NCBI RefSeq assembly: GCF_003790525.1
Contig: NZ_CP033635.1
DNA length: 64,000 bases
Strand: one strand, 5' to 3'
From: Escherichia coli
Lineage (GTDB): Bacteria > Pseudomonadota > Gammaproteobacteria > Enterobacterales > Enterobacteriaceae
The position numbers and the translations under genes were made by a program. A model generated the notes under the pieces. It was given only the letters and a program-made list of their open reading frames with translations, made no database searches and was not told the DNA's origin. This document shows, one piece after another, positions 47,817 to 49,112 of this stretch. Each line of letters opens with the position of its first letter. The first letter of the stretch is position 1.

Positions 47817-47939
47817 AATGTCCGTGCCTGTTTATCAGATTATGGGTAAAGGATGCCACAGACAGGATGAAAACATGAGTTTTTCACCGCTTTTCGTGAA
47901 AATCTTTTGTAGATCTTCTGGATCGCTCGCAAATCGTCA

Positions 47940-47948
47940 TGTGGATAA
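47940..47948 (-). promoter_or_regulatory. DnaA box (TTATCCACA) in the polA upstream region
   Basis: Perfect 9-mer consensus on the minus strand; a second near-consensus box (CTATCCACA) at 48081-48089. Confidence 0.5.
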
Positions 47949-48179
47949 CTTTGTGCATAAATTATTTACATCACTTTTAATTTATTATCATGCTTTTTAC
48001 AGCATGATGTTTATCTTTGTTTTTCATGCAGTTAAAAATAAAGCCATCCCTAATAATTGAGATAATGGGATTTTTTCTAATGTGGATAGATATGAATTAT
48101 TTTTCTCCTTAAGGATCATCCGTTATTTGGGTCGTTTTCTGCTAAAATCTGCGCCTTGCGCTTCTTTAGCGCACTGTCT

Positions 48180-49112
48180 ATGGCTAACCTTTTGAATAAA
48201 TTCATTATGACGAGAATACTCGCTGCGATAACCCTTTTGCTGAGTATCGTATTGACCATTTTGGTCACTATTTTTTGTTCCGTCCCGATCATCATTGCCG
48301 GGATTGTAAAACTATTGCTACCTGTGCCAGTCATTTGGCGAAAGGTTTCGCGTTTTTGTGATTTTATGATGTATTGCTGGTGTGAAGGTCTGGCGGTATT
48401 ACTGCATCTGAACCCACACCTGCAATGGGAAGTTCACGGGCTGGAAGGGTTAAGTAAGAAGAACTGGTATCTGCTTATTTGTAACCACCGTAGTTGGGCA
48501 GATATTGTCGTACTGTGCGTGCTGTTTCGTAAGCACATTCCGATGAATAAATATTTCCTCAAGCAACAGCTGGCCTGGGTGCCATTTCTTGGCCTGGCGT
48601 GCTGGGCGCTGGATATGCCGTTTATGAAGCGTTATTCCCGCGCTTATTTATTACGTCATCCGGAGCGACGTGGTAAAGATGTTGAAACCACTCGGCGTTC
48701 TTGTGAAAAGTTTCGCCTGCATCCCACCACCATTGTCAATTTCGTTGAAGGCTCCCGTTTCACGCAAGAAAAACATCAGCAAACCCACTCCACTTTTCAA
48801 AACTTGTTGCCACCAAAGGCGGCAGGCATTGCGATGGCGCTAAATGTACTGGGTAAACAATTCGATAAACTGCTTAATGTTACGCTGTGTTATCCGGACA
48901 ATAACCGTCAGCCGTTCTTCGATATGTTAAGCGGTAAACTGACGCGAATTGTCGTACATGTGGATTTGCAGCCTATTTCCGATGAGTTACATGGCGACTA
49001 CATCAATGACAAAAGCTTTAAGCGCCATTTTCAGCAATGGCTGAACTCACTGTGGCAGGAAAAAGACCGGCTTCTGACGTCGTTGATGTCATCACAGCGG
49101 CAGGACAAGTAA
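48180..49112 (+). CDS. yihG: PlsC-family acyltransferase; ORF opens at 48156
   Basis: Acyltransferase HX4D motif (NHRSWAD). Confidence 0.85.

Follow-up and report, generated by a model that had tools for sequence, protein, structure and literature searches.

The datA locus, which promotes DnaA-ATP hydrolysis, carries in K-12 a double DnaA box (boxes 7 and 2) followed by 56 bp, an IHF site on the opposite strand (TATCAATAGGTTA), a further 84 bp and box 3, and a joint DnaA complex between boxes 2 and 3 has been proposed for it. The consensus quoted for IHF in the datA and oriC literature is TAAnnnnTTGATW. A double DnaA box is defined as two boxes in direct orientation that lie 2 or 3 bp apart (PMC11317965), and the same study argued that many single DnaA boxes are unoccupied in vivo. 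Its DnaA ChIP-seq lists 16 bound regions, including "polA" at K-12 position 4046831 with 123-fold coverage, and Table 1 gives the bound sequence at polA as tTTATGCACAaagTTATCCACAt, named a double DnaA box (PMC11317965). The fold occupancy of polA (123) stands beside values of 124 for purH, 174-218 for oriC, 213 for datA and 78-213 for DARS2, and the classical targets were far lower, with 14 for nrdA, 25 for mioC, 5 for dnaA and 4 for rpoH (PMC11317965). polA is among the most DnaA-occupied loci outside oriC, datA and DARS2. According to reviews that cite Quinones et al. 1997, DnaA stimulates polA, particularly in stationary phase.

We analyzed a 64,000-nucleotide stretch of Escherichia coli DNA (the window), in which polA (DNA polymerase I, 928 aa; 45030-47816, minus strand) and yihG (acyltransferase, 310 aa; 48180-49112, plus strand) are separated by a 363-bp spacer at 47817-48179. 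The same two genes flank the site in the K-12 annotation. An earlier note on this DNA had given the polA/yihG region as 47817-48180; the assignment to these genes was right, and the end coordinate was off, falling 1 nt inside the yihG ATG. The note had also called the region AT-rich, and the GC content of the spacer was indeed 35%, against 50% in the window. Between the spacer and its K-12 counterpart there are three differences, all outside the motifs described here, and a 601-bp stretch around the site was present in 5425 of 5426 complete E. coli genomes, many of them at 100% identity. An Rfam scan of the spacer at a permissive threshold found no RNA element, the sole match being Spot 42, downstream of polA. 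An 80-aa open reading frame at 47818-48060 (plus strand) was treated as spurious since it sits in unconserved DNA, and a hairpin with a T-run at 47986-48009 (plus strand) was set aside as being conserved only in E. coli and E. albertii.

We searched the spacer for DnaA boxes with the R-type consensus TTATNCACA (TTWTNCACA). The perfect box TTATCCACA was found at 47940-47948 on the minus strand, matching at 9/9 positions and lying exactly where the earlier note had placed it. The one-mismatch box that had been reported at 48081-48089 was likewise present, as CTATCCACA on the minus strand (8/9, with C at position 1), 141 bp upstream of the perfect box. That account missed TTATGCACA, a further minus-strand box at 47952-47960 that fits TTWTNCACA and is separated from the perfect box, which lies downstream of it, by 3 bp (aag). 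The two make up a double box, TTATGCACA-aag-TTATCCACA (47960-47940), of which the perfect box is the downstream half and which has the direct orientation and the gap of the published definition. All three boxes share one orientation, that of the minus strand and of polA sense. The distal box CTATCCACA falls outside the strict consensus, yet the identical 9-mer occurs in the double box of the DARS2 core; no partner was found 2-3 bp from it. A weak inverted box at 47962-47970 was also seen, and it was not conserved.

A motif scan had been suggested in the earlier note; we used a DnaA weight matrix made from published DnaA sites with polA left out. The perfect box ranked first among the single sites of the 64-kb window (14.2 bits) and the pair at 47940-47960 ranked first among the double sites, with 26.5 bits vs 14.0 for the next; the distal box ranked about 12th among single sites (11.6 bits). 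Single near-consensus 9-mers are frequent in this DNA, with 24 such boxes in the window vs 12.8 expected, and this frequency is what would favor the reading that AT-rich DNA yielded the boxes by chance. However, when the spacer was shuffled 20,000 times with dinucleotides preserved, three or more boxes with at most one mismatch were rarely obtained (P = 0.00025), as were two or more TTWTNCACA matches (P = 0.0009) and a perfect box (P = 0.004). The boxes are also invariant in 80/80 genomes amid unconserved DNA, as detailed below, and a published ChIP-seq peak falls on the site. To the chance reading we give practically no probability, and it is already refuted by these observations.

The published 21-mer tTTATGCACAaagTTATCCACAt corresponds to NC_000913.3 4046822-4046842 and to positions 47960-47940 of the window, and the centre of the ChIP-seq peak (K-12 4046831) corresponds to position 47951, between the perfect and the partner box. 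The note to the table in PMC11317965 gives the coordinates as version.2; the position of the 21-mer agrees with version.3, and because of this we read the table coordinates as version.3. One peak was reported for polA and none separately for the distal box, a site that lies beyond the resolution of the ChIP-seq (PMC11317965). The functional unit is the double box at 47940-47960, and it is very probably the high-affinity site already known to bind DnaA upstream of E. coli polA. DnaA-dependent regulation of polA, as the earlier note had read the boxes, thus agrees with the 123-fold peak and with the stimulation that is cited from Quinones et al. 1997. That reading was to fall if polA promoters mapped elsewhere and DnaA did not bind the fragment; the mapped polA start lies inside the spacer and DnaA is bound there in vivo, so the reading stands on both counts. 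The note had spoken of ordinary biology, and the site had in fact already been published: a DnaA site upstream of polA is already known biology, and its recovery here confirms annotation.

The position of the boxes relative to the polA promoter could be determined from published SMRT-Cappable-seq data, in which the polA transcript spans NC_000913.3 4046938-4050006 on the forward strand (b3863|b3864) under both growth conditions (PMC6131387). It is the only transcription unit given for b3863 and runs through spf (PMC6131387 supplement). The mapped start corresponds to position 47844 of the window (K-12 4046938; minus strand), 28 nt before the ATG. The perfect box lies at -96 to -104 from this start and the double box as a whole 96-116 bp upstream of it, with its centre near -106, this being the sole published polA start that we found; the double box is therefore inside the polA upstream region and far from the core promoter. 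The distal box is about 240 bp upstream of the same start. Such distances (~96-116 and ~240 bp) are far for activation by direct contact, and they weigh against regulation of polA from these sites.

An invariant block, T[G/A]TGGCATCCTTT, was found at 47848-47860 on the minus strand and ends 6 nt before the mapped start; within TGGCATCCTT each base was kept in at least 90% of the 80 genomes compared, and most bases were invariant. By its position and sequence, which are the basis of the promoter assignment, the block is probably the extended -10 element of polA (TG-g-CATCCT, 47858-47850), and it is accompanied by no good -35. Two other identities were considered for it and rejected. The invariant TGGCAT does not suit sigma-54, as neither the GG-to-GC spacing nor the position of the mapped start fits, and as an inverted DnaA box the block matches at only 5/9 positions, with TATGG in its place in many genera. 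A promoter-like TAAACA-18-GATAAT at 48013-47984 (minus strand) was also rejected, being conserved only in E. coli and E. albertii and having no supporting transcription start. On the other strand, TGCTAAAAT at 48140-48148 (plus strand) is the probable extended -10 element of yihG and is conserved as TGnTAAAAT in the genomes where yihG lies beside polA; a search of the SMRT-Cappable-seq supplement found no yihG transcription start (PMC6131387).

To compare the upstream region across species, we collected the DNA upstream of polA from 79 species-level genomes, ranging from Escherichia to Erwinia and Pantoea, which makes 80 with the window included. The genomes were fetched with the PolA N-terminus as query, and the choice of genomes was thereby independent of the spacer sequence. 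Every one of the 80 has a perfect TTATCCACA, located 123-141 bp ahead of the polA ATG. The string CACAAA[G/C]TTATCCACA was invariant in all of them, which indicates conservation of the double box; the partner box varies in its first five bases, and the 3-bp spacer of the double box was kept throughout. The distal box was equally persistent: its 8-mer TATCCACA was invariant in 80/80 genomes, in the form [A/C]TATCCACA, and in most other genera the box reads ATATCCACA. The start-to-start spacing between the distal and the perfect box was 141 bp in 31 genomes, 142 bp in 48 and 143 bp in one. In the alignment of the 80 genomes the boxes stood out as conserved islands amid unconserved DNA, the DNA between them having an ungapped pairwise identity of ~37% vs the 28-31% expected from composition.

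Within E. coli, a 33-mer covering the double box was identical in 5392 of 5425 genomes and a 35-mer covering the distal box in 5410 of 5423, and no annotated feature was found over either of them in the E. coli genomes. We also searched metagenomes with a 30-base composite pattern of the module. At least 120 contigs matched, and in every one of the 112 contigs with enough flanking sequence a polA start was found 123-141 bp downstream, with a PolA N-terminal identity of 86-100%. Among the more distant contigs, dsbA was upstream and a pair of GATC sites (see below) was kept. Since the pattern can find only those modules that keep the motifs, the spread seen in this search is a lower bound.

The gene to which the module belongs could be judged from the genomes in which the neighborhood differs. 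The distal box lies at a variable distance from the yihG start (88-139 bp), and in about 10 of the 79 genomes yihG was not upstream of polA at all, with the module and its spacing kept. In Erwinia persicina and Pseudescherichia vulneris, for example, the upstream gene is a dsbA oriented like polA, and both genomes carry the module in full. The persistence of the module where yihG is absent, the variable distance to yihG and the constant presence of polA downstream together indicate that the module goes with polA rather than with yihG or the divergent arrangement. The divergent polA/yihG setting given in the earlier note was accordingly right as a location; the tie to divergence did not hold, the module being kept where yihG is missing.

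These data also bear on the possibility that the distal box regulates yihG and is unrelated to the polA site. In E. coli, TGCTAAAAT would place the yihG start ~70 bp downstream of the centre of the distal box, and overproduction of YihG was reported to suppress hyperinitiation (Babu et al. 2017, as cited), which would give a thematic link to DnaA. Against these two points, the distance of the distal box to yihG ranges over 88-139 bp when that to the double box is fixed at 141-143 bp, and the box and its spacing are kept in the ~10/79 genomes, and in several metagenome contigs, that have dsbA instead of yihG. We consider regulation of yihG by the distal box disfavoured and very unlikely.

Between the distal and the double box we identified an IHF-type motif, TTTCATGCAGTTA, at 48022-48034 on the plus strand, which matches the consensus WATCAANNNNTTR at 7/9 positions in E. 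coli and has a T-rich 5' flank. Read on the strand of the boxes, the central motif is TAAnnnnTGAww. Relative to the perfect box, it holds a fixed position, at -86, in 78/80 genomes and stands at -87 in one more. Of the 78, 7 matched the IHF consensus at 9/9 positions, 40 at 8/9 and 31 at 7/9, and only 1.6% of the other positions in the same DNA reach at least 7/9. The T, C, A and TTR of the motif were nearly invariant across the 80 genomes. In E. coli, 46 bp separate the distal box from the IHF-type 13-mer, and 61 bp separate the 13-mer from the double box. The 61-bp arm was constant in 78/80 genomes and the other arm was 46-47 bp, or 48 bp in one genome, so that arms of nearly randomised sequence are held at set lengths. 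DnaA boxes thus lie on both sides of the IHF-type motif, as they do in datA, a correspondence at the level of sequence only. We read the central motif as a candidate IHF bending site between DnaA sites.

Another protein could instead bind 48022-48034, or the motif could be part of an unmapped promoter, and the DnaA sites would then be independent of each other. Three features would suit this reading: WATCAA varies at its sixth position (A in 29, T in 37 and G in 14 of the 80 genomes), the E. coli motif reaches only 7/9, and a consensus scan finds the promoter-like TAAACA-18-GATAAT nearby on the polA strand. However, the bases that are conserved are those of the IHF core (TCA....TTR) together with the A/T-rich flank, and conservation on the box strand follows TAAnnnnTTGATW, the consensus of the datA and oriC literature. 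Neither the nearby promoter-like hexamers nor the hairpin is conserved. Furthermore, a bend-dependent architecture predicts just this: constant distances to both DnaA sites and unconstrained sequence in between. We consider the alternative less likely, though we give it appreciable weight.

Just downstream of the double box lies a pair of GATC sites, at 47921-47924 and 47912-47915, the second of which is within AGATCT (47911-47916). In 66/80 genomes the 45 bp that follow the perfect box contain at least two GATC sites, when the GATC density of the remaining region would lead one to expect such a pair in 0.2 genomes; in 52 of the 66 the two sites were 9 bp apart. The two sites lie about one helical turn apart, as in a Dam/SeqA-type region, and AGATCT has been quoted as an ATP-DnaA box (PMC8203912). 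The GATC pair could be a candidate Dam/SeqA element, an ATP-DnaA element or neither.

The known DnaA site of polA sits in a larger, strictly spaced, conserved and polA-linked module of which we found no description in the accessible literature. Neither the distal box nor the IHF-type motif, and neither the GATC pair nor the fixed spacing, was found in the accessible literature on the polA site, the primary 1997 paper aside. Taking the elements together, we propose that DnaA molecules at the distal and the double box may be brought together by a bend at the IHF-type motif, giving a single nucleoprotein complex of ~150 bp like those of datA and oriC. Such a DnaA-IHF complex would modulate a weak polA promoter, one with a putative extended -10 and no recognisable -35, and the GATC pair might either make the complex sensitive to fork passage, by way of hemimethylation and SeqA, or extend the binding of ATP-DnaA. 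Stated in full, this reading is that the DNA upstream of polA is a conserved, spacing-locked DnaA-IHF-DnaA module of ~150 bp across the Enterobacterales, resembling datA or the left half of oriC, that could link the expression of polA with the replication cycle, titrate DnaA or alter its activity, or do both. We hold it tentatively, at a probability of roughly 35%.

The comparative result is of modest specialist interest, in that the spacings are frozen while the sequence drifts, with an IHF-type motif at the centre. Should IHF binding and the distal box prove functional, the locus would add another chromosomal DnaA-IHF complex. A functional module would also offer a target that can be mutated for the high DnaA occupancy of polA, and for how DnaA activates, and does not repress, a promoter. 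If the reading is true, multicopy 'yihG' clones that carry the spacer could affect initiation through DnaA binding and not through YihG.

We compared the module with the known DnaA systems. The published polA DnaA site (Quinones et al. 1997; PMC11317965) has the same sequence, tTTATGCACAaagTTATCCACAt being positions 47940-47960 of the window. purH, nrdA and mioC resemble polA in having two direct boxes 2-3 bp apart that are bound in vivo, and purH, with the form TTACGCACAgagTTATCCACA and an occupancy of 124-fold, is nearly identical to polA on both counts. In the intergenic DNA upstream of the purH double box we found no IHF-type match of at least 8/9, and no box with at most one mismatch was found at 141-143 bp, the nearest weak box being TGATTCACA (7/9) at 135 bp. 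The dnaA promoter and oriC share with polA a strong R-type box followed by GATC-containing DNA, with an exact AGATCT in E. coli; polA differs from them in having only two GATC sites and no unwinding element. The likeness to DARS1 and DARS2 lies in a double box with a 3-bp gap, and the DARS2 core uses CTATCCACA as the distal polA box does. What the DARS cores have in addition is an inverted third box, box I, which lies 5 bp past the perfect one. The corresponding polA 9-mer (47934-47926, ATTTGCGAG) matches at only 3/9 positions, and the weak inverted box at 47962-47970 is on the opposite side. Since box I is absent, polA is not a DARS.

A further comparison is with datA. Both loci have boxes in the same orientation, one of them a double box with a perfect TTATCCACA, and between the boxes one IHF-type site that is on the other strand; both modules are 150-190 bp long with a spacing that matters, and both are near oriC with high DnaA occupancy in vivo. 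This likeness in layout (box, IHF-type site, double box) lends some weight to the reading that the module is mainly an element for managing DnaA, either datA-like or a titration site near oriC, which would sequester DnaA or change its nucleotide state and affect polA only secondarily. In its favor are also the occupancy of 123-fold, which approaches that of oriC, datA and DARS2 and is far above that of nrdA, mioC, dnaA and rpoH, and the distance of ~100 bp between the boxes and the polA start. The locus moreover belongs to an origin-proximal region of high DnaA-box density that was proposed in the literature to titrate DnaA, and the excess of near-consensus boxes in the window (24 vs 12.8) is in keeping with this. 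On the other hand, the module is always found with polA, at a near-constant 123-141 bp from its start codon, which suggests a link to polA expression, and we know of no experiment on DnaA-ATP hydrolysis or a replication phenotype for the polA locus. The geometry differs as well, the arms being 46/61 bp at polA vs 56/84 bp at datA, and the double box lying on the WATCAA side of the IHF motif at polA and on the TTR side at datA. A role mainly in DnaA management is, in our judgment, rather improbable.

If the arms are measured to the best box on each side, those at polA each fall short of the datA arms by about one helical turn, which we note as a curiosity since it comes from a single comparison. 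The polA module also differs from datA in that it has no box 4 and stands at a fixed distance from a gene start. In its layout, the DnaA-IHF-DnaA module that we tentatively propose is closer to datA than to a simple activator site.

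We examined the gene order upstream of polA in genomes that lack yihG and found that the DnaA module (the distal box, IHF-type motif, double DnaA box and GATC pair) is present there as well. Both yihF and yihG are absent in Erwinia, Pseudescherichia and several enterobacterial metagenome contigs. At these loci (L078, 1442-2095; L054, 1465-2088; and the metagenome loci L140, L195 and L143), dsbA lies immediately upstream of polA in the same orientation and is preceded by a srkA/yihE homologue, giving the order srkA/yihE homologue, dsbA, dsbA terminator, DnaA module and polA. At its other end, polA is directly followed by Spot 42 (spf; 44774-44892, minus strand; Rfam, 122.8 bits). 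Since a published full-length transcript extends from the polA promoter start to the spf terminator (K-12 4050006), polA and spf are partly co-transcribed.

Other elements of the polA-yihG spacer were compared across genera. A weak inverted DnaA box, TTATTTACA (47962-47970, plus strand, 7/9 match), is separated by 1 bp from the double box's upstream half, with which it makes a near-palindrome; this box was not conserved in other genera. At 47986-48009 (plus strand), a T-rich run comes after a hairpin with a 9-bp stem, TATCATGCT...AGCATGATG; the structure occurs only in E. coli and E. albertii, lacks conservation in other genera and probably has no function. The hairpin is terminator-like in appearance, and a promoter-like TAAACA-18-GATAAT on the opposite (minus) strand overlaps it. 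Most of the spacer is also occupied by an ATG-initiated ORF of 80 aa on the yihG strand (47818-48060, plus), which is almost certainly not a gene because the DNA beneath it is unconserved between genera. TGCTAAAAT (48140-48148, plus strand) was kept as TGnTAAAAT in all cases in which yihG is adjacent, and probably serves the yihG promoter as its extended -10; the searchable SMRT-Cappable-seq tables contained no transcript of yihG. A passage in PMC7277886, citing Babu et al. 2017, states that hyperinitiation of replication is suppressed by overproduction of YihG (gene at 48180-49112). If the yihG clone included the spacer, DnaA titration by its high-affinity sites could have contributed.

The DnaA ChIP-seq study PMC11317965 assigns its K-12 coordinates to NC_000913.2 in the note to Table 1. 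The centre of the polA double box is 4046832 in NC_000913.3, as against 4046831 in the table, and the coordinates therefore match version.3. Across the whole window (1-64000), 24 DnaA-box-like 9-mers (at most one mismatch to TTATCCACA) were counted against 12.8 +/- 3.6 expected, a ~2-fold excess that none of 100 shuffles reached; six of the 24 were the variant TTATCAACA. At about 105-170 kb from oriC, the window falls within the origin-proximal region reported to be rich in DnaA boxes (PMC12371093).
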